From contig CM120641.1 in assembly GCA_051362555.1 (NCBI GenBank), forward strand, positions 47,250,401 to 47,314,400: DNA of 64,000 nucleotides. Reading direction: 5' to 3'. The translations under genes were made by a program, and so were the position numbers. A model generated the notes under the pieces. That model was not told the origin of the DNA, searched no databases, and was given only the letters and a program-made list of their open reading frames with translations. The stretch comes from Lingula anatina (lineage: Eukaryota > Animalia > Brachiopoda). This document shows, in pieces, positions 1 through 52,261 of this stretch. Positions within the stretch are counted from its first letter, which is position 1. The number at the start of each line of letters is the position of its first letter.

Positions 1-896
1 TTAAACACCAACGTTAACAAAAGTACGCATTCTTCTCATTTTTTATGGTATGATGCAATGTTTAGTTAAATGGTTACCTAATGTGATAAGTAAGCAAAAC
101 CTTGCTATGATGGCGTTTTCCTTGTCGTATCCCGACCTCTCCCATCACCCCTACACTTCAACACGACTAATTTCACATACTAAAAATATTTATATTCTCC
201 TTGTGAACTATTATCAGCCAAGGTCGCGATTTTTTAAAACCTTGTTTGTGAAATGTTTAAATGACAATACCGCAGTAGGTAAGAGAGAAAGATAGGGAGT
301 GTGCGTGAGTACAGTGTATCTGCATGTTTTTGTTTTATAACCCTTCGTTTTGTTAAGTGCTTGTCTTTCCCTGCCTGGTTAATTTAATTTCTAGTCTTCT
401 TAACATGCAGTGGTTCTCATAATATTTAATAACATGTACATGTGCTTAAAATAATTAAGTGAAGTTCAGTGCCTGGAGGCACTGCTATACTTAAGGCCAA
501 CGTACACCCTCCCTCGTGCACACTTTTATTTACCATGGATTCGAATTATTTAGAATGCATGCCGCCTCCTTCACTGTAAACATTTCCTGGTTCAGTGACT
601 TCCAATGAACCCATGGATGTCTTTTAGTGATCAGCTCTATTATTATAATAATTATTATTATTGACCAATTTGTTGAAAAAGTATGATCGTATAACCCTTC
701 CATTTCTCTAAACTAGAGTAATTCTTCAACTGAGACCACGAGTGTACCAAATTAGCTGCTATGTTAACCACCAACGCCAGAAAAAGGGTACAGTATTTTA
801 AGGCAACAACCAGTTCTACTTTCAACTGTTTTGTATAGAAACTGCACATTTCTAGTTACTCAAATTTTAACAAATTTATCATTTTTTTACAGAGTG

Positions 897-2263
897 ATGC
901 AGAAATTTGAAATCATGGAAAGTAGCACTGCTCCTGCAGGTAACTTAAATATACCAAAGTATAAAAAAGAACACTACGTTAATCCGGTACATTTTTAACC
1001 ACATTATCATTATCATTATAATCATCATGTTCCCTGCTCTATAACGCTGCTCTATAAGTACGTCCCATGCACTGTGGGCGAATGTCCAGTATCTGTAATA
1101 GCTCTCAGGATGTCTGTGATAGACAGTACAGGGTGACCAAAAAAAGAAAGAAACCATAAAAAAATTTATGAAATCCTACAAAGGTCCATCAAAATTCAAG
1201 AAATTTGCTGGACTGTTACTTCAATATGAGTATGATCATTGCCCAAAGTTGCAATTATCTTGGTCACTTTGGATAAAAGTTCTTTTTAAGAATTTGCTCC
1301 AAATGGATGCACACTTGCATACGCCACAAAAAATTGTCGATTTCTCAAACACATTCCTCCTTCGAGATTTTCCTTATCTTTGCTGTGATTGCTCCCCACA
1401 GTTCACCGATAATTTGGGTGTTGTTCTGGTACAAATTGTCTGTGAGCAAGTTTTAATTTAATAATGTTTGTATACATGCTACAGACCAGAGCTAAACTGT
1501 TTCTTTACTGAGAATTATCTTTGTCTTTATACTATTCAGGCCCAGATCATTCTCTCTATACTCTCTGATATAACTATATGCAGTAGGAGTTACAGGTTGT
1601 TATCATTATCTGCTACATGTATTGACACCGTGTCACCAGTTTGTTCTTTTTATTATTGACCACATGGGAAAGAAGAGAAGAACCGTCATTTGGGTAGTAA
1701 AAATTGCCAACCATATAGTGAAGTATAACATTATTATCTATCCATCTACCTTATCTAACCGTAATATATTTTTGTTTGTTTATTTTATTTTTGAGTTTGA
1801 AATAATTATTAATGTCAACAAAGTGTCAATCAAAAATGTTGTTTTTTAAGTTGGTCCTTCAGGAAACCGCATTTTGACAGCACTGGTAGCAATGTGTGCA
1901 ATCGTCACTGTAGTAGCAATAGTTATAGCTGTAGTGGCAGTGTCGAGATCCTCGACCACTCCAAACATCACCATCCAAGGCGACCAAACGACAATAGGTG
2001 GCAGCACCTCTGGACAAGGTTCGTCTGCTGGGAGTTCTGTTGGGAGTTCAGGCTCAGCAGTCTCATCATCATCAGGAAGAAGGATATTCACGATTGCTCT
2101 AGGACATGATATTGGCCCTTTTGAATATATGTAGGTAGATTTCTGTGTGTTGTAGATATTACGTGTATTCAAATTCTAATTTCAAGAGGGGACCAGTGGT
2201 GTGATTTAGGCCTACTAAGAAATCGAAGGAGGGTCAGGACCCCCCTGACCCCCCCCCCCCGCC

Positions 2264-2296
<33 letters not shown>

Positions 2297-5200
2297 CGCC
2301 ACTGAGGAAATTGTAATAAACATAGTGTGGTTTCTCTAAAATCAGTAATAAGAGGCTACGAGGTTGTAAAACTTTATCGAATACTGTCACTTCTGCTGAC
2401 ATTCATATGTGTTGAGAAAAATTCTAATGTGTTTAATATACCCGTGATGTTTTCATTTTCAGGGACTCCTCCGGCTACTTGACAGGCTTTAATTTGGATT
2501 TAATTGACGCGGGTAAATAGACATTTCATTTTAACTTTTTTATTGCAGAATTTTATCACAGATTTATTCCCATTTCCTCTCTACCAGTCCATATGTTTGA
2601 AAGATGTACAAATAAGCATATGAATACATTTAATTTTCCAAGATGGAAAACAAATGTAATATACATGTATGATATTACTGCTAAATTTGATTTTGGATCA
2701 AAGTCTGAAAGGAAAACAAGGAAATAAAATCTGAAAGAATACACACACACATATCGACAAAAAGAAACAGAAAGGTTTGAATTTCAAATAACAATTTCTC
2801 TTTAGTGTGTAAAGAGGCCGGCATGGTCTGTCGCACCGTAAGGGACAAGTACAGCAATTGCTGGGACACCACCCCAGGACAACCCTCACACGGCGGGCAT
2901 GGTACGTCGGTTGTTTTAGTATTGTCTCATAGACTACACCATTTCAGAATTGTTTTATTATTAAGGTGATAAATATCTTAATCCCCTCCCTCGAGTATAA
3001 GCCTAAGGAAATGACCCGAGGGACTTCATCAAAGGTTGAACTAAACTGGAGGCTATGTTTTTCTTCGGTACAGTGTTAATGAATAAATGTGCACCAATTT
3101 AATCAAATTTAAAAACGATTGCATATACCCCCACCCCCCTCTTTCCTCCAGTAACAAAACACGGTGTTTAGTTGGGTATAAAAATGTGTCGGTTAAAGCT
3201 TATCCCAATGGCTATTCACATGGTGATCGCAAACATGCTATCTATTCATCAGAACCCCAAGTTCTTCTCAGGCAGTGCCCCAGGAATTTTGGAGGCAACA
3301 TACTTTTTTCTAATTTTACATTTACCAAGTATTTCACTCCCTGAAATGATCATAATTGATAGTGTTAATGAGCGCAAAGTGTTTTTTTTTTTCATTGTAT
3401 AAACACAGTTAATGCAAAAATGTCATCCAGATTGATGGTTTTGTCTTAGAATTGATTACGTTAAATAACAGTACACAAGGTTCAAACTTTAGCATCGTAA
3501 ATTTTAGAGCAGTATATTACCATTTGGAGCAAGTTATTTTTAAACAGCATTGTTCATTTAAACGCTGTATACAAACATGCCTAAAGCGTTGGAATTGTAC
3601 TGCATTTCAGGTTTGATAGGCCGTTGGTACGATGCCTGCACCGGCTGGTCTGGTACCGTACAGAGGCTTCAGGTCTTCAGTTTTTCTTCGTCATACGTTA
3701 AGCCCCTGACCATTTCTTTATTTGTCAAAACAGGGAACGCTGTTTTGTTTACGTCCAGAAGTTTAGCTAACAAGAAAACAGGTAAAGTGCAGTTACTGGT
3801 GAAAGTATATAAATTTGATAAGCGTTCGTGTATCAAAAAGAAAAAAGTAGGGGAAAACAATTTTAGGATCTTCGGTTGATGATGGTACTCGTTTTTCAAC
3901 TATAGAAAATTATCAGTACACTGTTACATGTACGTACTTAAGTTACAATAATGGTTACTTCAAACTGCAGACTAGGTAAATTAAGGTGAAGGTGGTGTAG
4001 CACATCTTGGTGTCTTACAAGTTAATAGAATTTTAGAGTGGTGGTTTGAAAAAAAATTATTATTAAATCTTGGTTGGTTTATTATTTGAGAAATTCTTTT
4101 TAACAATGAACATTATCAGTATACACTATAATGCACTCAAAGTTACAAGAATCGTTTCTTCAATCAATTATGAGATTTAATCAGTAAATTCAGGTAGAAG
4201 CTGCTGCAGCACCTGTACGTGTATATTCCCTGATGATGTCTTGTTCGTCTGTATTGGGAGATTTGACTAATAATACGAAGATACATATAAAATGATAAAT
4301 TAATGAGGATCGTGGAGAAGATAAAATTTACATTAACCGTCCTTTGACCGTCATAAAGTTTGATATGTAGATATATATTTGATAATAATAAAAATAATTA
4401 ATTAAAAATAATTTGAAAAATATCTGAATTATTCAAGGCTTCGTTGATGGCTGGGTTTGTGACGAGAACTGTCTGGCCAGATGGACCGGCGTCACGGGTC
4501 AGGACAATATGACCGTCGTCCACGCTCCGAATGCTGGAGATATCTTTGCCAAGTTGAAAAGTGGCGAGGTAAGATATTAATCCATTAATACAGTTTTTTA
4601 CCGTTGCATCATAAGTAGTAGTCATTTACTTTGAGACGTTCCATATTACGTTAATAAGTAAGATCTAGTAAGTTTTAGTAAGTATACTGCAAATAATATA
4701 TAACCCATTTTCACAAACAGATAGATGTAGCATTTTTACCTGTCCTGGCTATGGCAGGCCATACATCAGGAGCCAACCCCGAGTTTGAACAAGTCCCTGT
4801 CGGTGGTTTTTATTGCTCGGAGGCTGGACACGGGATGATGACACGGAAAGATAACGACTTCAACTCCCATTGGAACGTAGGGTTCAACAAACTGGTCTCC
4901 AGTGGGAAGTTTAAGAAATTATGCGACGCAGCGGCTACTAAACACGGTGAATCATGCGCATATATTTAATATTTACTCCCCTATCACAAAAGTGCCACCC
5001 TAAGGTAATGCAAAAATCGATATAAAAATCAAGTAATAAACCAATGTTTTATTCTGCTTCTAAGCGGATTTTTTTTCACACAAATTTACAGATTGTTCAA
5101 CCAATGAATAAGCTTTCGATAATAAAAAACAAAGTCACAATTTAATTTTGTACAGTGTCACATGGATTAGATGATGCACGTGACGCGTATGGAGTCAAAA

Positions 5201-5610
5201 AGTCAAATGCAATAGGGGTGGCACTATTTTCGTGAGGGAGTATTTATTAATATAAAAAATAGACCGAAGAGGGAATTTTTTTCAAACTTTGGGTATGTTA
5301 AATAAGAGGAAAGGACGGACGGTGACAGAAAGTGATGGCGGCAAAATAAGGTTTCAACAAAATTAAGTTTGGTCTTCTCTGATTAGAAATTGAAAAGCTA
5401 CTACTAGATTCACTAGAGAGAAAGTTTTCGTTAAATACAGACAGAGTGTAATGCAATAAATTATTAGCATCAATTATAAAAAATTCAAAATAAATTTTAG
5501 TGCTACATCAGGAGACACTTTATCTTGAACAACAATATTCACTTCATCTATTCTAAGATTCAAAACTTTTTGTAGGTTTTCGTGGTCCTGTGGACTGCGT
5601 AGACGGCTAA
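897..5610 (+). CDS. Type II membrane-anchored protein with bacterial-type solute-binding (SBP_bac_3/PBP2, HisJ/ArgT/ArtJ-like) ectodomain, copy A, 343 aa
   Basis: Eight GT-AG exons join in frame: 897-939, 1851-2130, 2463-2512, 2806-2901, 3611-3781, 4438-4568, 4721-4946, 5576-5610 (1032 nt). Product: MQKFEIMESSTAPA, hydrophobic helix ILTALVAMCAIVTVVAIVIAVVAV, Ser/Gly stalk, then IFTIALGHDIGPFEYMDSSGYLTGFNLDLIDAVCKEAGMVC...YDACTGWSGTVQRLQVFSFSSSY...LANKKTGFVDG...LKSGEIDVAF...GMMTRKDND...GFNKLVSSGKFKKLC, which follows the SBP_bac_3 motif order. Confidence 0.88.
1129..1456 (-). mobile_element. Degenerate Tc1/mariner transposon 3' fragment in intron 1 of copy A
   Basis: TA followed by CAGGGTGACCAAAA (mariner-type TIR end) at 1127-1142. 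The minus strand translates LTDNLYQNNTQIIGELWGAITAKIRKISKEECV*EIDNFLWRMQVCIHLEQIL, resembling the C-terminus of Tc1/mariner transposases, with a stop codon. Absent from the equivalent intron of copy B. Confidence 0.8.
2170..2304 (+). mobile_element. Truncated copy (3' half) of the hAT-like MITE family also at 6887-7128 and 7382-7661
   Basis: AAATTCTAATTTCAAGAGGG..TGGTGTGAT is shared with ~7577-7611. Ends in a C-run and AAATCCGCCACTG TIR. Confidence 0.7.
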
Positions 5611-6886
5611 CAATATCATTAAGACCGGAGATGAGAAACAACAGAGAAAGAAGCCTATATTGGAACCCAAGTATCAACTTCCCGTCGAAAACAAAACTCA
5701 GTTTCAAGTGTTAATTGGTTTCCAAACAAGAGGAATACCTTGTTCACATCTGACGCAATATCAACCCTCTCTGAAGGCTTAGGATGATCGACCCGTGAAC
5801 ATTTCTGTTCAAACATGAAAATGGACTCTTCCTCAAAGTGAACAATTCAGTTACATCAGTGACACATACATGTATATTGTGTTATAGGTCTATTTGCATT
5901 ATTTTGACTTCCCTCGATGTTTCACTGTTTTGTACCGTGGATTCCTCTGCTGTATTCCAGTAGTAGATGTTTTACATCCGTTTAGGTTGTTCTCAGCATA
6001 TCTGTCTAAACGCCTTAAGTCGAATGAAGAGATATTATAGTTTTTGGAAATCTATATAATTTAAAAAAGAATGCACACCACATCCAGCTTATTTTTATGG
6101 GAGGTCTACTCCAACAGATATTTTTATTGGTTAAACATTATAATTTATGCGCACTGTCTAGCACAAGTAAATTTAAATTAGTGCATAAAATTTTTTAATT
6201 TGGCCACCCATTTTTTACTTTTATGAAAATAATATTTATATTATTCAGCGGCAGTTTGCCAAATTCTATGCAATTTGAACAACCCTTTTATAAAAAATTT
6301 GGATTTTTTGTTTTGATGCCTCGAATGCCTGTATCTTGGACTTTTTATACAATAAGAAGTCATTTTTGAGTATGTTAGGGAAAGTTTTGACTTGAAAAAG
6401 TATCTGAATAACACAATTGATAACAGAAGTAACCACAAAGGGTATTAAAGGCGAGGTCGTGTAAATTACTGGTTTGACAAGAATGGTAGTCCTAGGAATG
6501 GGAATCCAGGGTCCAATATGATTAGTACAGGTTAGGTTTAACTGAAGTTAGTATATGGGACGAATAGACTGCAGTTCCTAGCGGACCTCCATTCCTGTCG
6601 CAATTATCAAAATTATCAAAAATTTTTACTTTCTAAATCACCATATTTCTCAAATTTGTGTTTCAAACTTAAGATAAACATAATAATAATAATAAATGGA
6701 ATTAAAAACTGAGAAAGAGTGACTATGCAAGCAACGGAGCCGAAAAGTTAAAACTGACAACATTTTACGGAAACTGATAACGTACCTATAATATCAAGAA
6801 TGTATTACCAAGAATATTCAACCAAAACGCCAAAAATCAGAAAAATGCACCCTAAAGTGAATTTATTCTCTGCAGATCACATGAGG

Positions 6887-7128
6887 AAGTGGCGGATTTA
6901 AGGAGGGGGCAGGGGGATCCGGACCCCCTTCGATTTCTGAAGAAAATCACACCAATGGTGCCCTCCTGAAAGTCTAATTTTGACTAGCTGAATCATAGTT
7001 TTAACCCATAGAAAATGGAACCGTTCGCCCTCTAAAATACAAAAAATTTTAAGATCCCAAACCCCACGTGAGGCTCGGCTTTGTATCCGCGCCCCCGCCC
7101 CCTTCAAATAATCCTGGATCTGCCTCTG
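6887..7128 (-). mobile_element. hAT-like MITE, reverse orientation
   Basis: Ends AGTGGCGGATTT ... GGATCTGCCTCTG. The interior is the reverse complement of the 7382-7661 copy. TGAGG is present on both flanks (partial TSD). Confidence 0.72.
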
Positions 7129-7381
7129 TGAGGTATATGGTTTGTTTACGTACATGATCCTCACATCAAGCTGACATAATACAACACGCCATCAGAATGT
7201 TAAAAAGCCTTGATACGGGTTGTCTCGTAAAGTATAGTCTATTTTTATGTCAAAAGCAGCCGGGCGTGCGATACCCAGCAGAGAAGGGTAGGTCATACTG
7301 CTTTAATGAATAGGGAATTATATTTAAAATAATATCTACAATGTATGTGTTACTTTTGCAAAGCAGAAAAAATTGTGAGAC

Positions 7382-7661
7382 CAGGGGCGGATCCAGCATT
7401 TTTTGAAGGGGGATCCGGAACGCCAGTCCTCGGACGCGAAGCCGACCATTGCCCCCTTGGCGTGGGGTTTGGGGCCTGCTCAAGCGCAGTGAAGGGCTCC
7501 AAAATATTTTGGTGTTTTGGAGGGCAAAGGGTGCCTCTGGTACGGTTTAGAACTACATGTATGATTCAGCTTGTCAAAATTCTAATTTCAAGAGGGAAAT
7601 ATTGGTGTGATATATTTTTAGAAAGCGAAGGGGGGGTCCTCTTAAAGTAAATCCGTCAGTG
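7382..7661 (+). mobile_element. hAT-like MITE with 8-bp target-site duplication
   Basis: Imperfect TIRs CAGGGGCGGATCC / AAATCCGTCAGTG, flanked by TGTGAGAC (7374-7381) and GGTGAGAC (7662-7669). CAG ends with an 8-bp TSD are typical of hAT. Confidence 0.75.
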
Positions 7662-8453
7662 GGTGAGACACGGGCAGTAAATAAGCGAAAGAAAACAAGT
7701 AACATTTACATCGCGAAGCACATTCCTATTTCTATTCATCCGGGTGAATCTGTGCGTGTCATCCTTTCTTGTATGGTCTATCGCCTGCTTAGGGCACTTG
7801 TATCGATATTTTGCCTCGCTTCTCCATCCTCTTCGCCATCTTTGCTTTGAGGCGCTTTTAGATACCGACAGGGACCCATGTATATCGGCACTGTTAATGT
7901 GTGCTAAATTAGTCTTTCTTCATGCGTTTGCATACCCGGTGTAAAAGGTGCCTGAGATACTAAAAAGTAACGCCAATATTTTTGTAGCAGTAAAGATGCT
8001 TAGTGATAGACCAGCGTTAGCAGAAGTATGCATGCTTCTTGTGTGCATGCTTTCATGGTACTTTAATGGTTACCTAAGGTGACAATTAAGCAAAACGTTC
8101 TTTTCCTTGTCTCATCCCGACCTTTCCATGACCCCTACGGTACATTACATTTTGTACAACACATTTTATATAACCCTTCGATTTGTTTTACCCTCTCTGG
8201 TTTCTTTAATCTCTTGTCTTTTTAGCGTTCACTGGTTCTCATAATGTTTCAGAACATGTATATGTACATATAAAGATTAAGTGAAACTCTTTCTACGTGG
8301 CCTGGAGGCATTGCCATAGTTAAGGTCAACGTGCACCCTCCCTCGTGCACATTTTCATTTAACATGGGTTTGAATTATTTAGAATGCATGCCGCCTCCTT
8401 CACTGTAAAACATTTTCTGACTTCAAATGAACCGATGTCTTCTGGCAATTAGC

Positions 8454-8455
<2 letters not shown>

Positions 8456-8502
<47 letters not shown>
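8456..8502. repeat. (TTA)n microsatellite; other microsatellites at 10704-10742 (CA), 17065-17115 (TAT), 23304-23347 (ATATA), 24682-24708 (TG), 37380-37429 (AAT), 50860-50935 (TTG/TTC)
   Basis: Directly visible simple repeats. Confidence 0.95.
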
Positions 8503-8751
8503 GTGATCAATTTGTTGAAAAAGTGTGATCGAATAACCCATCAGTATCTTTTATCTAGAGGTTTTCTTTAACTACAGAGTGTGTCAAATTCGACTAACTA
8601 GACACATGCAGTTTCTACATAAAATAAAGATAGAAGTAGGCCTACTGGTTGTTGTCTTACATTGCTTCACCATTTATCTTTCGTTGGCGGTTTACATACA
8701 ACCTAATTTGGTAACCTAATTTGATAAATTTATCTCATTTTCTTCTTCAGA

Positions 8752-10701
8752 ATGATGCAGAAATTTGAAATAACGGAAGGTGGCACTGCCCTTGCAGGTA
8801 ACTTAATATATCAAGGCATTTAAAAAACAACATTATTTCATAAATCCGGATAGATTTTTATATTCATACATTTAATCATCATTATCATTAGCATGTGCCC
8901 TGCTCTATAACGTTGTTGATCAGTCCCTTCCACACCCTTGGCTTTACCAGCTCTCATGATGTCTATCATCTTAGTATGTCCCATCCACTGTGGGCAGCTG
9001 TCCAGTATCTTTACTAGCTCTCAGGATGTCTATCATCTTAGTAGGCTATGTCCCATCCACTGTGGACATCTGTCTAGTAGCCTATCTTTACTAGCTCTCA
9101 TGATGTCTATCATCTTAGTATGTCCCATCCACTGTGGGCAGCTGTCCAGTATCTTTACTAGCTCTCATGATGTATAACGTCTTAGTATGTTCCATCCACT
9201 GTGGGCAGCTGTCCAGTATCTTTACTAGCTCTCAGGATGTCTATCATCTTAGTATGTCCCATCCACTGTGGAGAGCTGTCCAGTATCTTTACTAGCTCTC
9301 AGGATGTCTAACATCTTAGTATGTTCTATCCACTGTGGACAGCTGTGCAGTTTTTTTCTGTTTGCATTACATTACCTTGCTAATTTTCTTCACAAATGTT
9401 CCGTTACCAATTGCTCTACACTACCACTGTATCATAAGAAAATGTATGACATACATGTATGCAACTTCAATGTGGGAAGAATCAAGACTAAACATTTCTG
9501 TATCACTTAAAACCCTTTTTTAAGGAACTTTTAGAGATATATGCCTATGTGCTTATTTTTAACTATGTAGTTTGGTCTTACTTAGGCCTACTAACTTATC
9601 ATCTTCGAGCCATGTAATATAATCATTATTAATGACAACAAATGTTGGTTTGTTAGAAGGTCCTTCAGGTAACCGCATTTTGATAGCACTGGCAGCAGTG
9701 TGTGCAATCGTCACCGTAGTAGCCATAGTTGTAGCTGTAGTGGCAGTGTCGAGATCCTCGACCACACCAAACATCACCATCCGAGGCGACCAAACGACAA
9801 TAGGTGGCAGCACCTCTGGACAAGGATCGTCTGCTGGGAGTTCTGCTGGGATCTCAGGCTCTGCAGTCTCATCATCATCTGGAGGACGGATCTTCACGAT
9901 TGCTGTAGGGCATGATTTAGGCCCATTTGAATATGTGTAAGTAGATTTTTTTTTTTTTGTATTATAGTTCTTACATCTCTGCATATGAAAATAAGTTGGC
10001 GAAAAGATATTATGTGAACCTACAACTTTTGCGGCATGCCCAAAAACACACAAACTATTTTATTAGAAACCAGAAGAAACGGCCATAGTCACGACATAAA
10101 TGAATTTAGATAAGCATTGAGAATCAAGAGTTGGGACTTACTGCATAAGTACTTTAATTTGTGCAACAATTACATTTTTATAAGATGTTTCAGACTTGTA
10201 CTTTAGAATCTATAGGCTACTCTGCCTCTACATGTAGTCATTGTCATATCTAAATGTTTCATAGTCTACTTTGTCGTTTCATCTTGGGAGAAATTTTAAT
10301 AAATATGGTGTGGTTTCTCTAAAATCAGCAAAATGGGGCTACAGGGTGGTAAAACTATATCGAATACTGTCACTTCTGCTGACGTTCATATTTGTGAAGA
10401 TAAATTCTATCATGTTATACCTGTGGTGTTTTCACTTTCAGAGACACCTCTGGCTACTTGACAGGCTTCCATCATGATTTAATCGAAGCGGGTAAATAGA
10501 TATTTCATTTCACCTGTACGTTATTATTATGAAATTTCATCGCTGATTTTTCCCCAGTTCATATCACTGAAATATGTGGTTAGCATATCAATACATGTAA
10601 TTTTCCAAGATGAATAATAAATGTAATATATATTATTAATATATTTCTCATGAATTTGATTTTGGATGAAATTCTGAAAGGGAAACTAGAAAATCTAAAA
10701 G

Positions 10702-10744
<43 letters not shown>

Positions 10745-13101
10745 ATATATTGACAAAAAAAGTAGACACGTGTTTCAATTTCAAATAACAATTTCTCTAC
10801 AGTTTGCACCGAGGCCGGAATGGATTGTCGTACTATATGGGACAAGCATACCAACTGCTGGGATTCCACCCCAGGACAACCCTCACACGGTGGCCAGGGT
10901 ACGTGGTTTGTTTCAGTGTTGCCTCATAGACTACACCATTTCAGAATTAATACCCCTCCCTCAGGCTTAAGGTTTAAAATGACTTAAGGACCTTCATCCA
11001 AGGTTGATCTAAACTGAAAGCTATGTTTTTATTCGAGCTGGACTCGCCTGTTCATGCGAGTTTTGCAATTGCTGTACTGCGTTGTAAATATGAAACGCTA
11101 TATACAAACATGCCTATAGCGTTGGAATTATAGCCTACTGCATTTCAGGTTTGATGGGCCGTTGGTATGATGCCTGCACCGGCTGGTTTCGTACCTTAGA
11201 GAGGATTCAGGTGTTCAGTTTTTCTTCCCCTTTCCTGAAGCCCCCGAGCGTGCATTTATTTGTCAAAAAAGGGAACGCTGTTATGTTTCCTTCCAAAAAT
11301 CTAGCTAACAAGACAATAGGTAAAGTGCAATTACTGGTGAAATAATTATAAATTTGATAAGCATTTGTGTATCAAAAAATAAAAAAACAAGGGGACAACG
11401 TTAGTTACAATAATGATTACTTCAAATTGCAGACTAAGTAAATTAAGGTAAAGGTGTTATAGCACGTTTAGGGGCTTGTTAGAAACTAGAATTTTAGAGT
11501 GGCTGCTTTAAAAACCATTATTTAATCTTGGTTAGTTTATTAATTGAGAAATGCTTTTTCAACAAAAAAAACATTATCAGTATACACTGTAAGGCACTCA
11601 AAGTTACAATAATTGTTACTTCAATCAATTAACAGATTTATTCAGTAAATTCAGGTAGAAGCTGCTGCAGAAACTGTATATTCCCTGATGATGTTGTCTT
11701 GTTCGTCTTGTTTGGTTGGTCCGTGTATCAGTTCTGTACCATCTAGATTTCTAGATTTAATAATTTCAGTGTATATTTATGTGTTACAGCATTCAGGGAA
11801 ATTTGACTAATAATACGAAGATACAAATAAAATGATATATTAATGAGGACCACGGGGAAGATAAAATATGCATTAACCGACTTTTAGCCCTCATAAAGTT
11901 TGATAAATAAATTAATTTGAAGATATTCATAATTAAATAAATATATCATTTAAAAAGTATCTGGATTATTCAAGGTTTCGTTGATGGCTGGGCTTGTGAC
12001 GAGAGGTGTCTGGCCAGATGGACTGACGTAACAGGTCAGGACAATATGACCGTCGTTCACGCTCCGACTCCTGGAGATATCTTTGCCAAGTTGAAAAGTG
12101 GTGAAGTAAGATATAAATCCATTAATACAGTATTTTACCGTAGCATCATAAGCAGCAGTGAAAAGTTCCATATTACATTAATAATTATGTTGTATTGTTT
12201 TATTAAGTATGCTACAAATGGTATATTTTAACCCTTTCACTACTAATAGATGGATGCAGCATTTTTGCCTTTCCTCGCCATGGCGGGCCATGCATCAGGA
12301 GCCAACCCCGAGTTTGAGCAAGTCCCTTGGGGTGGTTTTTATTGCACGGAGGCTGGGAATGGTATGATGACACGGAAAGACAACGACTTCACCTCCCATT
12401 GGAACGTAGGATTCAGCAAACTGGTCTCCAGCGGGAAGTTTAAGAAATTATGCGACGCAGCGGCTGCCAAACATGGTAAATCATATGCATATGTTTAATA
12501 TTTACTCCCCTATCAAAAAAGTGCCACCCTAAGGTAATGCGAAAATTGATTTAAAAATCAAGTCATAATCCAATAAGCTTTCGATACAAAATCAAAGTCA
12601 CAAATTAGTTTATATTTTGTACAATATCCCCTGGATTAGAGGGTGCACCTGACGCGTCTGTGTATGGAGTCAGAAAATCAAATGCGGTACTTTTTCGTGA
12701 GGGAGTAAATATGAGTATAAAAATAGACCGAAAAGGCATTTTTCTTCAAACCCCGGATATCAACTCTGGTATATATGAGGAAAGGACGGACGGGGACAGG
12801 CTGGGAAGTGATGAAGGCAAAATAAGGTTTTAACAAATTTACGTTTGGTCTATTGCAATTAGAAATTGAAAAGCAACCACTAGATTTACTAGATATAAAT
12901 GTATCGTTACATTATTACAGGCATTATTACAGGCAGAGTGTAATGCAATAAATTATGATCGTCATTTATAAACAGTTGAAAATAAAATTAGTGCAATATT
13001 AGGAGACACTTTATCTTGAACAATAATAATCATTTTATCTTTTCTAAGTTTTAAAACTTTTTGTAGGTTTTCGTGGTCCCGTGGACTGCGTAGACGGCTA
13101 A
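8752..13101 (+). CDS. Type II membrane-anchored SBP_bac_3-like protein, copy B, 344 aa
   Basis: Exons 8752-8797, 9657-9936, 10442-10491, 10803-10898, 11149-11319, 11975-12105, 12250-12475, 13067-13101 (1035 nt). Phases and internal exon sizes are identical to copy A, and the ORF is intact, ending GFRGPVDCVDG*. Confidence 0.88.
8940..9350. repeat. 67-bp minisatellite, about 6 copies, intron 1 of copy B
   Basis: Unit TTTACTAGCTCTCAGGATGTCTATCATCTTAGTATGTCCCATCCACTGTGGGCAGCTGTCCAGTATC recurs at 9154, 9221 and 9288. Confidence 0.92.
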
Positions 13102-13349
13102 CACTATCATTAAGACCGGAGATGAAAAACAACAGAGAGAAAAGCCAATATTGGAACCCAAGTATCAACTTCAAAACTTAACCCGTCAAAAACAAAACTC
13201 TGTTTCAAGTGTTTATTGGTTTTCAAACAGATGTCCGCCATACCATATTTGGACAAAGTGTGATTGAGGGACCGCTCACAGTATTGCATTCAGCGAAAGT
13301 CCCCGCATTGGCTAGGTCGACATAACTCTACGTTATGAACGGCCCCTAA

Positions 13350-13574
13350 GGGTGCATTCCCAGAGATTTAGATCGATCCAGAGATTTAGATTAAGATCGA
13401 CCTAACTCCCTGGGGGTTCACGCTAAATTGCAGTCAGCCGAGCGCGCACCATAGTTAATTACCCCCTTACAGCTTTTAGTAGGCGGGACAGACGCTTAAG
13501 CCGGCTAAGCTGACAGTAATCTAGTGAGACTCCCCACAGGGATAGATCGATCTAAAATCTATGGGAATGGGGTC
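13350..13574. mobile_element. Foldback MITE, PIF/Harbinger-like (TAA target duplication)
   Basis: TAA|GGGTGCATTCCCAGAGATTTAGATCGATC ... GATCGATCTAAAATCTATGGGAATGGGGTC|TAA, with further internal inverted arms (..GCAGTCAGC / GCTGACAGT..). Absent from copy A. Confidence 0.72.
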
Positions 13575-15679
13575 TAAGAGGCATATTTAGTATGTATCGT
13601 CGCCATTATTGAGTTCATGTACAATTACCATTTGTAAAATAAAAAGATTATTGAAAAAAAATTATAAACAGCATATCTGTCTAATCACCTTAAATCGAAT
13701 GTACATATGTTATAGTTCTTGGAAATTTATAAAAAGAATATACACCATATCCAGCTTGTTTTTGTGAGAGGTCTACTCCAACACGTATTTTTATTAGTTT
13801 AACATTAGAATTTATGTGCACTGTCCAGCAATAGGGGCCTAGTAACTTTTTATGAGTGCATCAATAATTTTTAATTTGGTCACCCAGTTTTCCTTCTATG
13901 AAAATTATATTTTTACATTTCTGCTACAGCTAGCCAACTTCTGTGCAAATTGAACAACCCCATTATAAAAAATGGGAGTTCAAATATTGGATTTTTTGTT
14001 TAGATGCCTGGAATGCCTCTTTTTTTTTTTTGGACTTTTTATACAATAAGAAGTCCATTTTGAGTTTGTTAAGGAAAGTTTTTACTTTAAAATAACACAA
14101 TTGATAATAGAAGTAACCTTAATTGGGCATTAAAAAGTGAGGTCTTGTAAATCGCTGGTTTGACAGGAATGGCAGTTTCTTCTAGGAATGGTAGTCCAGG
14201 GTTCCATATTATGATTAGTAAAGGTAAGGGTTAGTTGGGGTTATTATGTGGGAAGAATGTCAACAGTATAAAGTAAAGACTTCGGTTGTTAGCCAACCTC
14301 CATTCCTGTCATATCGGTTCCATGCAGAAAAAAAGTTATCATAAAAATTGTCCTTTCTAAGTCACTATTTCTCTCAAATTTGTGTTTCAAACTTAAGATT
14401 ATTATTTTTGTGCCTCTTTTGAAAATAAATTAATTTTTAAAATAAAATTCTTTTTTCACTTATACATCTCTGTGACATATCGGTACTGGTACCTATTTTG
14501 GCAGGGCGCAATTCCGATATTTGGATAATTGACCCGGGAGTTGTAAATTGCAATGTTACTGCACTATTACAAACTCAAATCAATAAGAATTCAAGGTGAC
14601 TTCAGCGACACAACTAATAAGAATGTACTCAATTCTAAACAGAGTATGTCGTAACAATTTTAAATTCTGTATATGCCAGTGCTTTTTGTATAAGTCTTAA
14701 TATTTTTATCCATCCATATATCTGTGCTGGTACTTGTGAAAATCTTGCAGGTTACGTGAGCATAGTGTAGTTCTTTTTTTTTTTCAAAATGCAGCTGGCT
14801 GTCACCATTGATGGCCTATCATGCACAGCACACTGCAGCTATCAATGCGGTCCCAACCACCATCTTCACCAAACAAAATGAAATATATGGAAGTGGATTA
14901 AGATGCAAAAGTACAAAAAAAAAATGAATTGGATATATCTTTATTTAAAATATTTACATACTGTTACAGGTACATGTTGGTCCACTGATGAGTCATGAAT
15001 GCAGAAATGTGACTGTAATTTTCTAAAAGACCTGCTATAACATGTTGCATTCAATAAATTACAATGTATCATAAATCAGATAATGAGGTATTGCTTAGTG
15101 GCAGAATTTCTGTTTCGAGAAATTCAGCTGTCATGGTTTGTGACACTTCTCAAAAGTAAATGGTTGATTTTCAACATTTAAACTCCAAATTAAAACCCAA
15201 GTTTAAAATACCCATGTTTAAATCACAATCACAGTATTTGTATGTGTGCATGTGTCTGCGTGTAACATTATTTGAAATTATTAAACTTACAAAAAAGTCT
15301 GTGGAAGGAACTAAAATATAATCAGAGATTCTTCAACAAATAACTTACAAGTATAAACATCAGCACAGACATGGTAGATAAAAAAAGTGCTAATCCAGTG
15401 GTCCCTTGTTACAAGTAACATATAAAGTGAAAATCATATGCGCTGATTGATAAAATGTTGACGAGTGATAAGTATGATGATCATATAAAATATAGCCCCA
15501 AACAGAAAAATTACCCATTCTATCTTCCAGAATTGGAAAATTCTTATCTCACAATACTTCATTGTTCCTCTTGATAAAACCTCCTTTTATTTCACAATAA
15601 AAGATGCCGGCAAGTGTAGCAGTGTGGTTTTGACGTAGCAAGAAGTCTTTAAAATAAAATTATCTTATCAGTCTTTGTT

Positions 15680-18736: not shown

Positions 18737-21700
18737 ATGGCCTGCCCGGATTATCTACCGCAATTACCCCAGCGAAGTTACAGTTCCAACGACCTTCACG
18801 ACTATGGAGAGAATTATTGGAAATATTCTATCTATGGACACGGAAGGCTGGGGCCAGGCGGTCCCATGCTGTTTACAGGTGAGACGCACAGGTGCAACGT
18901 GACACCACGAGCATTTCCCGAAACATGAGACATGATCTACAAACAAAGTCCGTTCAATATTGAATAAAACTTTGTCACAGTTTATTTTTAAAGACTTTTA
19001 TAACCAAATGACACGTACGTGCATGGTCTTATATTTTGTCCGAAATGCAAATTACGCTATTTTAAATGTTATGTGTTGAGTGTAGTAGATTAGAATTTTT
19101 ATTTTTGAGTATGGCGCAATAAATGGGGTTGTGCTCAGGTTGTCATGCAACTGACTAATGCCACATGTGTTTGACAAGCTTTTCCAGACAGACATTATAT
19201 GTACATTATATACAGATACTTATATAGAATATTTCATATATTTAAAGAAATTACAATGGAAAATTAAATCGTTTAGACATCAAAAGATGAATGTCACTGA
19301 ATCAGTTCTTTTCAATCATAAAGCAATCGGCCTGGCAGAAAAAGAGAGGGACAATGGTTATAATATAAAATTTTGTAATAGACTACTCTTGCTAAGAAAT
19401 GCAGCTGTGGAAAATTCTGGTTTTTCTATTCTATCTTGAAAGATAACAATAAATTATATATTGAAAAGACTCTAAAGTGACCAAAGCTTGACCGAAAGAA
19501 CGGGGGATTTAACTGCTCTGTTTGAATGAAGAGAAAAGACGCACTAAGCGCTTTATATATTTTAAAAGGAAATGTGACGAAATATATTGCAATGAAGTAA
19601 ATCGTGTCACTAAATGCGTCACTTTTATCCACAGAGTTATGTTTTAATTTAAGATTTACGCATCTAAATTACGACATTTTAGGGGTTTTCTGTTTTATTA
19701 TAACAATGCTTTACCAAAAATAAAAAAAACTAAAAATTAAAACAATGCGTGCAGGTTTTTAAAAATTCCCCATAGTAGATCTATCATATCTAAAATAGAT
19801 TTGAAAATCTTATCTACCAATGGATATCAGTAGTGTACCTTGTGCCGCCAACGAATATTTTATGATGATACTAAGAGGTGTACTGCATGTGTTCCAAATT
19901 ATTTTTCATGTCTAACTATTCTGCAAAGCTACTGTTCATGTCCAACCTTGAGTTACGAACCATGAAACTCTCGAATAAAAGTGCCAGGTGTCAATATTGA
20001 TTTCTGATATGTCATAAAGAATAAATCGTGATTCATTTAAAACAAAGATATTCAATCAGAAATATTATAAAACATCAAATACAGGAGCTTGGACGGTCTA
20101 CAAATGATTCATGAGTAGATATTATTTTCGCGGAAAACTAGATTTGACTTGAAAATCCTGTAGATCTTTAATCTGTAGATATTTCATGAGAGTTTTTAGG
20201 CGTAAAATTTTTTCTGGTGACTGAATATCAATCTAAATCGCACCTACTTGACATTTTTATTCGATATACATTTCCTGGTATTATTTTCCCTTGGCAGCAC
20301 GAACCCTTTGATTGTAGAGTATAAAGGTTATTCGCATTTTATTTAAATCTCAATTACCTAGTCTCATTACGGCTGAACTACACAGCATTAAGAGTGACCC
20401 CTTCTCACCAGCACGCCCATTTCAGCGTAACTATATCCATGTGCAAACCACAGCGCGCCATTAGGCTGGGCTAACAAAATATTGAATCAACCGATCCGAC
20501 TTATTCCTTTTATTGCAGTCAGCTCTTTAAAATAAGGAAATGAACTCCGATATGAAAGAAAGCTAATCGATTCTCCAAATAAAAGTTGACATTTCTCGCC
20601 CTTACAAGTAGAAATGTACAATCAATGCTAAGCACAATAAATATTAGATAAGATCCGATTGGCAGATTAGAAGTGGTTCCTCCATCGAACAGTTATAGTG
20701 TTTTATTGCCTCACGACGGATTAGGACAAACAGAAACCAATTCATCGCACTGTTGAATTCAGTGTTACTTTTTCAACGTCGACAAACCTGAAACAAATTA
20801 GATATCTAATGAGGAATACTTCAACGTTTTCAACTTATGGGCTTATTTCATTGCGATTTACATGTTAAGTGACAAGAAATCACAGCGCCTGTCTAATAAA
20901 CGGCAAACAAACGAAGGATAATACACCAAGATAGTTGAATCCCGTCTAGTATCCAGTTCAGCGGATATCTGTATAGAAAATATTCCGGACTAATTGAGCT
21001 CATTAACAAGCAAATGTGAAAAGATACTGACTGATTTACTAACGGATCACCCGCATCACAGGAATATAAGAAAACTGTTTGCTTCACATTAGAGAAGACT
21101 TATACAATAAATTACTATTATGTCTAGTATGTCCTATCTCCCCTTCTCAGGTCCAGACGGCCTTTGGGATCACAGGGTCCGCGTGCAGGACGAGTACCGC
21201 TACGTGGGGGAGGGCACCATGTCCCCCCTAGGAACCAGCGAGGCAGCGTACCTGTGGCGGGCCCCCAGGGACTCCCCCCACCCCAAGCCTAAGTCTGCCC
21301 GTGTGGGAGAAGTTGGTTGGGGTGTGCCCATGTTTACGGACTGGGGGGTGCCCCAGTCAGGCAGGCAAATACAGGTAAATTTTATTTATTTATTTATTTA
21401 TTTTAGGGAGATAAGTCATATATATTTGTTATCGATTCGCCTAAATGCCTTTGACGCTGAAAAACTTTATCAATCTGATACCGTGTTACACTGTTTACGG
21501 ATAAAAATGTATAAGCATTGGGAAGCATCAGTTTTGATATAAGTAAAAAAGAAAATGAAGCCTAAACGATCGACTTTTAGATTCATCACAGCCTTTTATA
21601 TCTATTTACTTTATCGTCGAAACTGTTGACATCTCTTAATTTGTGGTGACTATGATATCAAGTACCTGCCTTTTTCTACCGATACGATTCCTTGTTAAAC

Positions 21701-24335
21701 CGCATGGTTCAATATACAGATCAAACATTCTATAGGATTCCCACGGTTGCCAAACACTCCAACTGTGCACATTTGAATGGCGATGATTACATTTCTAATT
21801 AAATCGTTGTAAAGAAAAAAGTCGGTTTTTTCTAAGGTAGGCCTTTTCTATCAAATTAAATAAAAAAAGACGAAATGTTATTTCAATAACGCGGCTAAGA
21901 ATGAAAATGGTTAGAAAGTTATCCTACAGCGTTTGGTAATGGCTCCCAGTCTTGATTCGATCGTAGGTGCGCAGTAGGTCGCAGGTGCATCGATTCTGTG
22001 AAATACTCTCAGCTGAAAGTGAAAATTAATTGCATGGATTATTTTTCTTTCTTTCAGTTGGGTGAATTCCGTCAGTGGTGCGAAGACAGGCATACACACT
22101 TATTCCAAAACCCATGGTGAGAGAAATACTTGATTGATCACTGTCGCTCAATCAATCTGACTTGTTAGATTAATATTTCATGTCACCAAATAAACGGGAT
22201 TGATTTGGGACCCAGAAGAGTTTATCACTCAGCGGGTTACCCCGAAGGAAAGATATTCAATGTAGAGTACCTGTACCGTCGAATGAAAAAAAAGCCAATA
22301 CAGGTCCATATCTTCTTGTAGTCATCAAATAAATACGCTCCACTCACTGACTATCAAGTTCGCCTTGGACAGAGCTATAAGTAACTTCTGTTAAACTGAA
22401 TACAATAATCATGGAAAAGATAACAAACTGTGACAAATGCCAGCAAGGTTAATGTGATGTGTAAATTACGCAAATTCTGCAAAATGACTCCATCAAGTAA
22501 AATCAATTTCACCAATTTTTATAAAGACAACAATGCGACAAGTTTCAAAAGTATTTATTTATTATCTATTGATTTAATGGTTTATTGATTAATTTATTTT
22601 TATTCCACAGGTACCCTGGCCCAAACGATCCCATAGATCAGGACCCGGATGATGTGATGGTTATGAACGTGTACAGATCACCTACCAGAACGCGGTCATC
22701 AGCCTCGATACGGAGGACGCGGAGGCCCATGGTGCCAGCAGCCACGCCTTTATATTCTAGTGGATATGGTAGTCAGGTAAGTCTTAATACGACAAGGTTT
22801 TATTTATTTGTGCCACAGATCAAGTTGGATGGATTAAGCCCCTGAAACTTTCTTCTTATTGATTTATTTATCTTTATCTTTATTTTTATTTATTTATTTA
22901 TTTATTTATTATTATTATTATTATTAGTTTTTTATCTTTTAATTTTTAATTTTTATTTATTTTTTTGCCTATCCGATCATGTCTCTCATATATATATATA
23001 TATATAATTTATTCTACAACTGAATGAAATAACTGTCGACAAAGGACATATGTACTCACTCAGGTTACTAGATTCCAGGTAACGATTTATAATTATTTAG
23101 TTATCTGTTCGTGCGTATTTTTTCTCCAGATGCATTCGGGTCGCTCTCGGCCTCTTAGACTGTCTCAGTCGTCGGAACGGTCCACTGAAAAGGATGGTTA
23201 TTCTGAACAGTCAGAGAGCAACTATGGTCGGACGGACTCGGGCAGACCAGAAACCAGTGCAGACAGGCCTATAGGGAGATCTCACAGTAGAGGTAACATC
23301 TCAATATAATATAATATAATATAATATAATATAATATAATATAATATTGAAGTAAATAAATTCTATAATATTTGTTAGCAACAGGTCTGAATTTTGTACT
23401 TCGTGATATAATTACCTGTTATGAAAATTTTTTTTCCAAGTCTTTACGTATCCACCTGTTGTGCATTAAAAATCGGACTGATACCACCGTGGTTTCAGAT
23501 ATGAGAAAAACAGTGACGTCGCTTTAAGAAAAGTAACATCAAATATTGATGACACTTGAGGCCGACGCTTTTGTGAAGTCTGCATCTCAAAACATCTTTG
23601 AATTCCTTGCAAAGTGCTTTTCAATTTGGTGTTTTTAAAGACTAGAAAGTGTTGAAACACTAATAAGCTTATTTTATGTGATACTTTTTATCCTTTTTCG
23701 TTTTGTCATTTTTTGCTTAATTAATCGATTTATTTTCAGGTGAATTAGAGCAGGAGGACTCGTCTTACTCCAGACCCTCTAGCAGCCAGCGCGGCAGCCA
23801 AAGTCGCACAAGTTCTGCAGGCAGAAAAGGCGCGAGGTAAGTCACACAGGAATGCGCTAGGTGTGACAAAAACAGAAGGCAATATTCTCATTGTCTGGGT
23901 TTCATTTTCTACGTCTGCTTGTTCTAGGCATTTGCTTTGTGGGACAATACCAGCTAAACTACCACAATTACATTCAACTTTTGATGTACTTTTGGCATCG
24001 TTCTTGAAAACGACCGTACACAGGTAAAGGGTATTGGTTCAATACACATAATGAATCAGCCGATGTATTTTCGGGCGTCCTAAAAATATTCCTAGTTTGT
24101 GTATTGGCCATCCCTCTCTCGGATTCAACAGGCACAAACAGACAGACAAAGATAAATGCATGTGCAGTGCAATTGCATAATTGTAAAAGTTTGTGACATG
24201 ACTTCGCGATCTTCTAACACACTGGAAATTTACCACAACAATAAGGACATGTATAACATGACATACCTGTATGTACTGTCTTCGAATGTTGTATCGATTA
24301 TTTCCTATTCCAGGTCTTCACTACCAGACTATTAG
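18737..24335 (+). CDS. SPMIP2: Sperm microtubule inner protein 2-like (C4orf45/DUF4562 family), about 290 aa
   Basis: Exons 18737-18878, 21151-21374, 22058-22116, 22611-22776, 23130-23292, 23740-23836, 24314-24335 join in frame. Motifs MLFTGPD, YVGE, YLWR, VGEVGW and THLFQNPW match recalled C4orf45 (MIFTGPD..YVGE..YLWR..EIGW..THRYQNPW). The 3' exons are supported only by splice sites and frame. Confidence 0.8.
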
Positions 24336-33900: not shown

Positions 33901-35581
33901 ACAGGGCACTCTAAAACTACAAGCACCATAATTGCTCATATCCACTCTCATGACTAATATATCAACTTGATGACAGTGAGATGTAGCTAGCAATACAGCT
34001 AAAAGCCTTCCATATTCAATATTCATTAAATTTATGAACATTAAATCAAAATGACACAATGCATTTTTATACTCTAAAGAAAGTATAACAAATTTTATAT
34101 CATTTTACCACTGCCACTGCCTGGCTATAGACATACTTGAGCATATTTTCATTGCCAAGAGACATAGCAAACTAGTGTGATATCTATTAATATCTCTCTC
34201 ATGTCTTTGAATAATCATCATTACATGTTTAAAGTGATGATAAAAATAGATGATTCACATGAGCCTAATAAAATTCAACTCTCAACCTGCAGTAGGATAT
34301 AAAAACGAAGAGTGTCACACAGGTATTACACAAAAATTTTTAGTTGATAAAATGGCTGAACCATAAATATATATTCTATAAAGTAAGTTCCGATTCTGGA
34401 CATCTAAACCTCTCACATAAAAACTATATAAAAATGGCCATGTGTTGGTGGTACATAAACATGGTTTTCAATCTCTCAGATTTACTGAACAGATGTTTAC
34501 AAGCTGCTCCAAACTGCATCACTAGCCATATGTTTAATTAAAACTATCAGAAGTCCTGCTAAATCATGAATGAAATATGTAATGAAGGAGCAGACATAAT
34601 TTCTTAAACAAAACTGCCACCACCATTTATACTAATTTTTATAGAAGAAATGACCAGAGTTCAAAAATGCATAATACCCAAAAAAAATCATTATTTTAAC
34701 CCCAAATTGCTTTTCGCTGCCACTTGCAATTGTACTAAAATCAACCAAGTGTCTATAATATGTAGCATATATACTCAGCTGCCCTACTTTGACCTTTCCT
34801 ATAGCTACAGTGTATATGTACCGGTACCATGGTAGGTGTATGCAGGTCATGCTTGAACTTTTTAGAAAATGTTTTTTAAAGAAAGACAGAACATGGGACA
34901 AAACAATTTCATCACACATTTAATAGGGGATTGAGTTTTTTCCCAAGCCTGGCACAGTCTTTAACCAATTAACATGGGATCTAAGAACTATTCTGATAAA
35001 TATCAAAATATCTGTTCCATGGATGGTTGCAATACAGACAACCATTCCCTTCACTGTTCACACACAAAATGAGCACATCTGATAAAAAAAGTATGTCAAC
35101 AAAGTATTTGTAGGAGTATATATTCTGCAACATAACAACTACCAAGTTATAAATCATTCATAAAACCTGTTCATAACTACACCAGAAACAGAATGCTATC
35201 CAGTGCATCTCAATACATCAATTAGCAACACAACATCCCTTTTAGTTCATAATATCTTTTTTTTGAAAACTCACCTCCGTAGCACTAGCCATTGTGAAGA
35301 CGTCTGCTCTTCTTTTGGTCTACTTTATGAGCCAGTTGTGTTTATCTTTTACAGGCTACCAGTGCAGCCTTTATATACACACCCTTCCTCTGACCTAATT
35401 ATATTAATAGTGCAAGCCGGGCATTTATATTTATGTTGTGCAGTGCATCATCTGCAGCTCTAGCAGCATGCAGGTATATCCTGTACTCGCTGTATGCCCA
35501 TGGTGAAGTATAACTAACTTAACATGCAAGTACTAATAGGATGCAAAAAAAAAAATAAATAAATAAAAATAAATAAATAAC

Positions 35582-35615
<34 letters not shown>

Positions 35616-52221: not shown

Positions 52222-52261
<40 letters not shown>

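Follow-up and report, generated by a model that had tools for sequence, protein, structure and literature searches.

Two intron-containing genes of Lingula anatina encode predicted membrane-tethered, bacterial-type solute-binding proteins of an apparently undescribed cysteine-rich subfamily

A 64,000-nucleotide stretch of the genome of the brachiopod Lingula anatina (GCA_051362555.1, contig CM120641.1, positions 47,250,401 to 47,314,400; hereafter the window) carries two genes for proteins resembling bacterial solute-binding proteins (SBPs) of the SBP_bac_3 family. Binding-protein-dependent solute capture is regarded as prokaryotic, and in animals the SBP_bac_3 family is known mainly within glutamate-type channels. 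The window proteins belong to a distinct, Cys-rich SBP_bac_3 subfamily that occurs as a stand-alone binding domain in marine invertebrates and is apparently undescribed. Judged by predicted fold and a conserved Arg, they resemble a bacterial binding protein outside the HisJ, ArgT and ArtJ groups. We favor, with a probability of roughly 0.45, a function in which the anchored domain would trap a carboxylate solute outside the cell, for uptake or as a buffer.

Both products matched Pfam SBP_bac_3 (PF00497) with 48.1 and 49.5 bits (cut-off 26.4; E 1e-12 and 5e-13), as did 121 of 121 aligned relatives. Seven Lingula proteins gave no match at E≤1 to the channel families PF00060 and PF10613 or to Pfam transferrin; a weak PF10613 match was obtained for 8 of the 121 relatives (best 2e-4; 25 of 29 families shown). 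In NCBIfam, the scores lay far under the cut-offs of TIGR01096, HisJ, ArgT and ArtJ (37-45 bits, cut-off 256; 18-25, cut-off 459). A structure model built from a 121-sequence alignment (predicted local distance difference test, pLDDT, 96.3; predicted TM-score, pTM, 0.90) replaced an earlier one from nine sequences (pLDDT 73.6), which was discarded. Searched against 48,161 PDB representatives, the model overlaid best on two liganded bacterial SBPs, the amino-acid SBP 3i6v (Z 21.2, root-mean-square deviation (rmsd) 3.0 over 216 residues) and LAO 5owf (Z 20.7, rmsd 3.6 over 228); Foldseek also matched LAO (E 1e-16). The bacterial glutamate receptor GluR0 from Nostoc followed at Z 19.5, and the best animal glutamate-receptor domain reached Z 17.8 (rmsd 3.6, 230 aligned). 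The family profile matched 280 PDB sequences, and the best 60 of these contain no glutamate receptor. Thus, Pfam, PDB sequence ranking and structural Z agree with the periplasmic-binding fold, and with the closer kinship to HisJ/ArgT/ArtJ than to ligand domains of ionotropic glutamate receptors (iGluRs), that an earlier sequence-only reading of this DNA had proposed. SAR11_1210 had the top TM-score (0.74) among the Foldseek rows listed, yet was rejected as a sister because it lacks the family insert described below.

Both genes, rebuilt from the window, have eight coding exons on the forward strand (gene 1, 897-5610; gene 2, 8755-13101). All seven introns of each are GT..AG, in identical phases (1,2,1,1,1,0,1). 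Each open reading frame (ORF) of 1032 nt encodes 343 amino acids with zero stops and zero frameshifts, bearing out the earlier claim of two intact spliceosomal genes. The products are identical at 280 of 343 residues. Synonymous and nonsynonymous divergence were 0.30 (dS) and 0.095 (dN), and both genes are under purifying selection (dN/dS 0.32; 0.27 in the domain). A pseudogene was rejected in both cases, and bacterial contamination was ruled out by the introns, the animal neighbor genes and dN/dS. An exon 7 query recovered 'uncharacterized' RefSeq proteins of L. anatina; the models XP_013390093 and XP_013390096 differ from the rebuilt products by 5 and 1 residues. In RefSeq, gene 2 has an additional upstream exon and a 37-residue tail instead of 22. 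Given this exon, and reads in which further sequence is joined upstream of exon 1, the transcripts probably comprise nine exons or more. The features are listed below with their basis (X7 and X9 are RNA runs).

897-939, + strand: gene 1 coding exon 1 (ATG, short N-terminal tail); gene model, exon 1-exon 2 joints in reads
1851-2130, + strand: gene 1 exon 2 (membrane helix, NIT sequon, Ser/Gly stalk, binding-domain start); gene model, read depth 50-105 in X7/X9
2463-2512, + strand: gene 1 exon 3; gene model, zero read depth
2806-2901, + strand: gene 1 exon 4 (C-x6-C equivalent to HisJ C38/C45; family-specific Cys insert); gene model, alignment, depth about 15-29 in X7/X9
3611-3781, + strand: gene 1 exon 5 (WYDAC motif, conserved carboxylate Arg, lobe 1/lobe 2 crossover without pore or intron); gene model, alignment, zero read depth
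4438-4568, + strand: gene 1 exon 6 (lobe 2, GFVDGW, NMT sequon); gene model
4721-4946, + strand: gene 1 exon 7 (Pro at HisJ D161 position, C-terminal helices); gene model, RefSeq match, alignment
5576-5610, + strand: gene 1 exon 8 (last Cys, stop); gene model
7247-7287, + strand: gene 2 extra upstream exon, adding 15 residues; RefSeq model only
8755-8797, + strand: gene 2 coding exon 1; gene model
9657-9936, + strand: gene 2 exon 2 (membrane helix, stalk, domain start); gene model
10442-10491, + strand: gene 2 exon 3; gene model
10803-10898, + strand: gene 2 exon 4; gene model
11149-11319, + strand: gene 2 exon 5 (Arg, lobe crossover; alone matches SBP_bac_3, E 9e-4); gene model
11975-12105, + strand: gene 2 exon 6; gene model
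12250-12475, + strand: gene 2 exon 7; gene model
13067-13101, + strand: gene 2 exon 8 (stop); gene model

The genes lie in tandem duplication units of roughly 1-6700 and 8000-14400, one gene in each, and tblastn found no third copy in the window. Upstream of exon 1, about 125 bases (745-867; 8586-8713) lie in opposite orientation in the two units. Intron 1 of gene 2 holds a tandem repeat of about 67 bases (8942-9357), present as a single copy at about 1057-1115 in gene 1.

In both proteins a 22-residue tail leads into one hydrophobic helix of 24 residues (about 23-46; 19-mer hydropathy up to 3.2), followed by a Ser/Gly stalk and an unbroken 250-residue domain. This layout had been recognized in the sequence-only reading, as had the NIT and NMT sequons (N53 and N237, in both proteins; gene 2 also has N210), about nine Cys (nine in the domain and one in the helix, ten per protein) and the motifs GPFEY, DSSGYLTGF, CKEAGMVC and SSGKFKKL; all were located in the products. 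The single hydrophobic segment is N-terminal to the domain, and there is none elsewhere in either protein. The lobe crossover, where the pore is inserted in iGluRs, falls within exon 5 and contains neither an intron nor a hydrophobic stretch. The absence of a pore, also claimed earlier, therefore stands, and a mis-predicted iGluR channel was ruled out. The Cys pairs, the sequons and the existence of secreted-looking paralogs point to a domain outside the cytosol, and the window proteins are therefore likely type II membrane proteins.

The signature of the family was defined on 166 domains, 165 of at least 190 residues from 147 of 168 proteins plus the bacterial-looking member L001 (residue numbers follow the RefSeq model of gene 2). 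The distance from C148 to D179 had a median of 32 residues, compared with 21 in 12 of 12 canonical SBPs, corresponding to an 11-residue insert. Eight Cys were each conserved in 86-99% of ungapped rows, with the complete set in 103 of the 166 domains. C141 and C148 align to HisJ C38 and C45, as proposed for CKEAGMVC from the sequence alone; this C-x6-C is also present in 12 of 12 bacterial outgroup rows. C158 and C181 were lost together (phi 0.92), as were C240 and C304 (phi 0.91), which suggests that each pair forms a disulfide. With C141-C148 and C340-C355, four disulfides would result.

R190 is the equivalent of HisJ R77 in two alignments, and Arg occupies this position in 155 of 166 domains. 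In HisJ/LAO, R77 is the carboxylate-binding Arg and D161 the α-amino-binding Asp. The D161 position is Pro in both window proteins (two alignments) and Asp or Glu in 19 of 166 domains. With this Asp lost and the Arg kept, binding of a plain amino acid is doubtful, and the description of the proteins as 'amino-acid-binding' in the sequence-only reading is weakened. HisJ D11 and D30 are not conserved in the family, the HisJ T120 position (W234) is aromatic in 132 of 166 domains, and D/N237 and H347 are conserved family-specific residues. Cleft positions differ between close paralogs. D161A and R77A mutants of LAO occur among the PDB titles. We read the cleft as one that may still bind a carboxylate or similar oxyanion, without the usual α-amino geometry.

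The family thus shares with HisJ, ArgT (LAO), ArtJ and STM4351 (PF00497, TIGR01096) the family match, the fold (Z 19-21), the C38-C45 pair, a T-x-x-R motif with R77, an F-S/T-x-P-Y motif and, in most members, an aromatic residue at F52. In contrast, the animal proteins are only about 20% identical to these SBPs, fall under every NCBIfam cut-off, and have the 11-residue insert, three more Cys pairs and loss of D161, D11 and D30. The window proteins also differ in their uncleaved anchor, stalk, sequons and spliceosomal introns; no ABC (ATP-binding cassette) permease or ATPase was seen in the nine nearby ORF pieces scanned. The ligand domains of GluR0, AvGluR1, GluRIIB, GluK2 and plant GLR have the type II periplasmic-binding fold (Z 15.3-19.5) and the carboxylate Arg in common with the window proteins, which differ in having no pore, a helix N-terminal to an unbroken domain, no PF00060 or PF10613 match and no acidic amino anchor. 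Transferrin, melanotransferrin and saxiphilin are animal, extracellular, disulfide-rich, stand-alone binders; they belong to the same broad class of folds and exist both as secreted and as tethered proteins. Thus, the earlier statement that animals use this fold mainly inside iGluR and ionotropic receptor (IR) channels needs qualification for stand-alone transferrins. The window proteins differ from transferrins in belonging to the SBP_bac_3 sequence family; transferrin was not among the 50 structural rows listed, and the two may be linked at the level of fold.

A nine-sequence profile retrieved 128 clusters (50% identity) at E≤1e-30; relaxing the threshold to 1e-10 and then 1e-3 raised this number to 428 and 2655, and 150 clusters were listed. 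Taxa were looked up for 20 of the 150, 14 of them without a name, and the range given here is a lower bound. Lingula has at least 12 members. Named members occur in echinoderms (Acanthaster, two Diadema species), an annelid (Owenia), hemichordates (Saccoglossus, Ptychodera), the diplonemid Namystynia and the prasinophyte Prasinococcus. The family spans at least four invertebrate phyla (brachiopod, annelid, hemichordate, echinoderm), in line with the earlier expectation of similar predicted proteins in other marine invertebrates. In a crude hydropathy census of the 150, 57 were signal-peptide-like, 40 had long anchors, 22 had neither and 31 were truncated. Membrane tethering, proposed earlier, is thus predicted for both window proteins and is one form within the family, in which secreted-looking members outnumber anchored ones.

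Several members are unusually long. P0172 (3750 amino acids), P0038, P0123, P0135/P0174 and P0074 have 3 to 9 tandem SBP domains, one of these proteins being from a diplonemid; P0038 carries TSP1 domains, and the C-terminus of P0172 weakly matches XopAI (31, cut-off 300). Among 25 mostly long members scanned, the multi-domain forms were such tandem repeats, one with TSP1 domains, and no convincing match to a pore or signaling family was found. A word-index search for longer fused forms returned one weak bacterial kinase from 7997 scored candidates, which is weak evidence. In P0063, P0066, P0087, P0088, P0089 and relatives (including Saccoglossus and Owenia), which look secreted, a long low-complexity or acidic N-terminal extension replaces anchor and stalk.

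Three members look bacterial: L001:534-1436, P0142 and P0060. These secreted proteins share the insert and all eight Cys of the animal family. The L001 gene is intron-less, with about 66% GC and a signal-like N-terminus; it lies tail-to-tail with an oxidoreductase-like ORF, and no ABC gene overlaps it within its 2.4-kb contig. The N- or C-termini of P0142 and P0060 resemble bacterial sorting signals; NCBIfam gave no sorting-signal match in either. GTDB genomes searched with the animal profile yielded one pattern match and no loci, none of 54 viral candidates belonged to the family, and plasmids and phages returned canonical SBPs only (21-37%). A bacterial-looking member used as query found nothing in plasmids, and the ESM Atlas lists bacterial SBP_bac_3 clusters only. 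Burkholderia phage BCSR5 carries a canonical ABC substrate-binding protein gene (MW460245.1 43569-44237). The family is probably present in a few bacteria as well, and its bacterial-looking members may have donated or received the gene, or may represent a sister lineage.

For phylogenetic analysis, 69 family domains hand-picked from the 166 to span clades were combined with 12 canonical proteobacterial SBPs; iGluRs were left out. The family split from the canonical SBPs at 100/100, with tandem-repeat, four-Cys and protist-like rows branching earliest. The three bacterial-looking rows formed a clade (100/91) within a 63-row group (97/93), and a 54-row group (93/97) contained every named animal. 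Hemichordate rows joined Owenia-containing rows (96/87) rather than echinoderms, suggesting that the paralogs arose before protostomes and deuterostomes separated, or that resolution is poor. When the bacterial-looking rows were constrained to the outgroup, this placement was not rejected (approximately unbiased (AU) test, p 0.197). Note that the tree includes eight long-branch rows and a narrow outgroup. In one plasmid and 14 control genomes, PF00060 had no match. A bacterial SBP ancestry of the domain is well supported, and the domain probably predates the protostome-deuterostome split. Of the horizontal acquisition suggested in the sequence-only reading, the bacterial ancestry thus holds; a direct bacterium-to-animal transfer is unsupported, because diplonemid and prasinophyte members exist and the tree, without iGluRs, neither places the bacterial-looking rows outside nor rejects this. 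An old eukaryotic family that was lost many times, or transfers that took place repeatedly between marine organisms, would fit as well as one bacterium-to-animal transfer.

Transcription was analyzed by mapping four RNA runs to window positions 600-4300, which cover the 5' part of gene 1. Reads of X7 and X9 covered exons 1, 2 and 4, with 50 (X7) and 119 (X9) reads on the main exon 1-exon 2 joint. Loose read ends past exon 4 ran into the start of exon 5 (69 reads in X7, 31 in X9); by eye, their letters matched gene 2 at 29 of 30 positions and gene 1 at 27 of 30. Joints between exons 2, 3 and 4, linking anchor to domain, were not seen in the four runs; the helix and the first domain strand both lie within exon 2. 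Read identity was mostly 90-95% (332/409 in X7, 425/527 in X9). X1 and X4 had almost no exon reads, and their signal came from an intronic repeat; depth differed about 50-fold or more between runs. The exon 2 depth stems from between a quarter and a third of the reads of a run. A short GC-rich interspersed repeat, intronic at 2171-2207 and also found at 6900-7050 and 7500-7634, attracts RNA reads of other loci in all four runs. Thus, the gene family is spliced and unevenly expressed, and the spliced transcripts sought to back the sequence-only reading were found for the family, not specifically for these two copies.

In the proposed trap, the two-lobed domain would close around a small carboxylate-bearing solute, with the Arg gripping the carboxylate, and hold it at the cell surface. 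The loss of the α-amino Asp and the aromatic W234 at the lobe-2 cleft suggest that an organic acid, a betaine-type osmolyte or an amino acid carrying a modification is more likely the ligand than a plain amino acid. At 22 residues (37 in the gene 2 model of RefSeq), the tail is probably too short to signal by itself and, with no pore present, a partner would be needed unless the protein acts as a buffer; the trap may therefore concentrate solute for a separate carrier, or buffer it. Paralogs differing at cleft positions could cover different ligands.

Several observations weigh against this proposal or its parts. The co-loss of Cys pairs occurred mostly within one clade and is not independent, and the charges flanking the helix fail to fix its orientation. 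Counting an acidic residue one column on raises the D161 count to 61 of 166, and some family members may bind amino acids normally through this residue. The cleft assignments rest on sequence alignment, and alternative alignments differ by one position at S69-S72. No transporter was found among the neighboring genes in the window, which encode DUF4562, annexin, leucine-rich repeat (LRR) and RME-8 proteins. Finally, no read was ≥99% alike and exons 3 and 5 of gene 1 had zero depth in the four runs, so these two copies are not singled out as transcribed.

Other functions were considered. The proteins could act in signaling, as a ligand-presenting co-receptor or a transmitter or odorant buffer beside chemosensory or synaptic receptors, in analogy to molluscan acetylcholine-binding protein and insect odorant-binding proteins. 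This role would be consistent with the fold shared with ligand domains of iGluRs (Z 15-18), with lineage-specific expansions in which the cleft residues vary, and with the occurrence of secreted and anchored forms side by side. Bacterial SBP_bac_3 proteins also serve signaling receptors, according to PMC8050422, which treats prokaryotic SBPs. However, the absence of a fused signaling domain in the 25 mostly long members scanned, the short tail and the exon 2 depth, which suggests abundant transcripts in some samples, weigh against signaling, which we rank second to the trap.

A role as an ectoenzyme, in which the binding protein would have become a catalyst acting on a small carboxylate on the cell surface or along the secretory pathway, appears less likely still. 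Ectoenzymes and Golgi enzymes typically have this type II arrangement of tail, helix, stalk and domain, and SBP_bac_3 proteins have shifted to catalysis (cyclohexadienyl dehydratase, CDT) or to non-standard carboxylate ligands held by aromatics (ectoine-binding EhuB). The canonical amino anchor is gone, D/N237 and H347 are conserved, EhuB was the second-best NCBIfam match of gene 2 (E 7e-6; 25.5, cut-off 190.9), and CDT entries occurred among the relatives (5jos, E 1e-14; 5wjp, Z 16.3). However, CDT and EhuB are bacterial periplasmic proteins of lower structural rank (Z 16.3-16.9), the CDT entries lie well beneath plain binding proteins, the cleft has no invariant polar residue other than the Arg, and close paralogs vary there.

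We consider it improbable that the proteins sequester carboxylate-bearing dietary algal metabolites or toxins as a sponge, in analogy to saxiphilin. The animals with named members live in the sea and, apart from one predator, feed on suspended matter or deposits or by grazing, which would fit, as would the expansion with a variable cleft and the many secreted-looking forms; against this, the tether is conserved in a large share of members, and the same family occurs in algae, protists and bacterial-looking sequences. An origin as an iGluR, IR or GLR ligand domain minus its pore, or as a gene-prediction artefact of such a channel, is most improbable: common clan membership, the high rank of Nostoc GluR0 and the weak PF10613 matches are outweighed by the crossover in a single exon, the absence of glutamate receptors from the best PDB sequence matches, the HisJ/LAO-type C-x6-C common to the bacterial outgroup and animal iGluR domains at least 3 Z units lower.

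The neighbors of the two genes are ordinary animal genes. A spliced DUF4562 gene (E 4e-20) lies at 21111-24030 (+), followed by an annexin gene at 28992-37131 (-) with a Gly/Pro/Tyr-rich N-terminal exon and, in an intron, a 68-base tandem array (29766-30440). A single-exon LRR stretch of 655 amino acids (42782-45350, -) precedes a helical exon that looks death-domain-like by eye and had no Pfam match at 0.01. An RME-8/DNAJC13 gene with RME-8_N and GYF_2 matches spans 49426-62000 (+). No ABC permease or ATPase was found among nine neighboring ORF pieces scanned in the window.

Literature searches at the level of listings and abstract starts, with subscription papers, bioRxiv supplements and some tables outside their reach, turned up no description of the family, in agreement with the earlier statement that no function had been described. 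The main text of the Lingula genome paper (PMC4595640) does not mention it, and one supplement has a Peripla_BP_6 row only. The passages and supplements of the hemichordate genome paper (PMC4729200) that were searched are likewise silent on it, and the paper lists other genes common to deuterostomes and marine microbes. PMC12697944 contains none of the family terms.

The protein is small, has a high predicted fold confidence and is directly screenable for ligands. Knowing the ligand would inform on the sensing or uptake of organic solutes at low concentration by marine invertebrates, and on the entry of bacterial Venus-flytrap domains into eukaryotes. Disulfide-stabilized binders that already use the eukaryotic secretory pathway are also possible scaffolds for fluorescent sensors. 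A wider and rather doubtful idea is that marine bilaterians keep an unrecognized repertoire of bacterial-type high-affinity traps that dates from before protostomes and deuterostomes diverged, tethered or secreted, with paralogs tuned to different dissolved metabolites and feeding animal carriers or receptors in place of an ABC importer, gene transfer having spread the family between bacteria, algae, protists and animals of the sea. If this were true, animals would have binding-protein-dependent uptake or sensing of dilute seawater organics.

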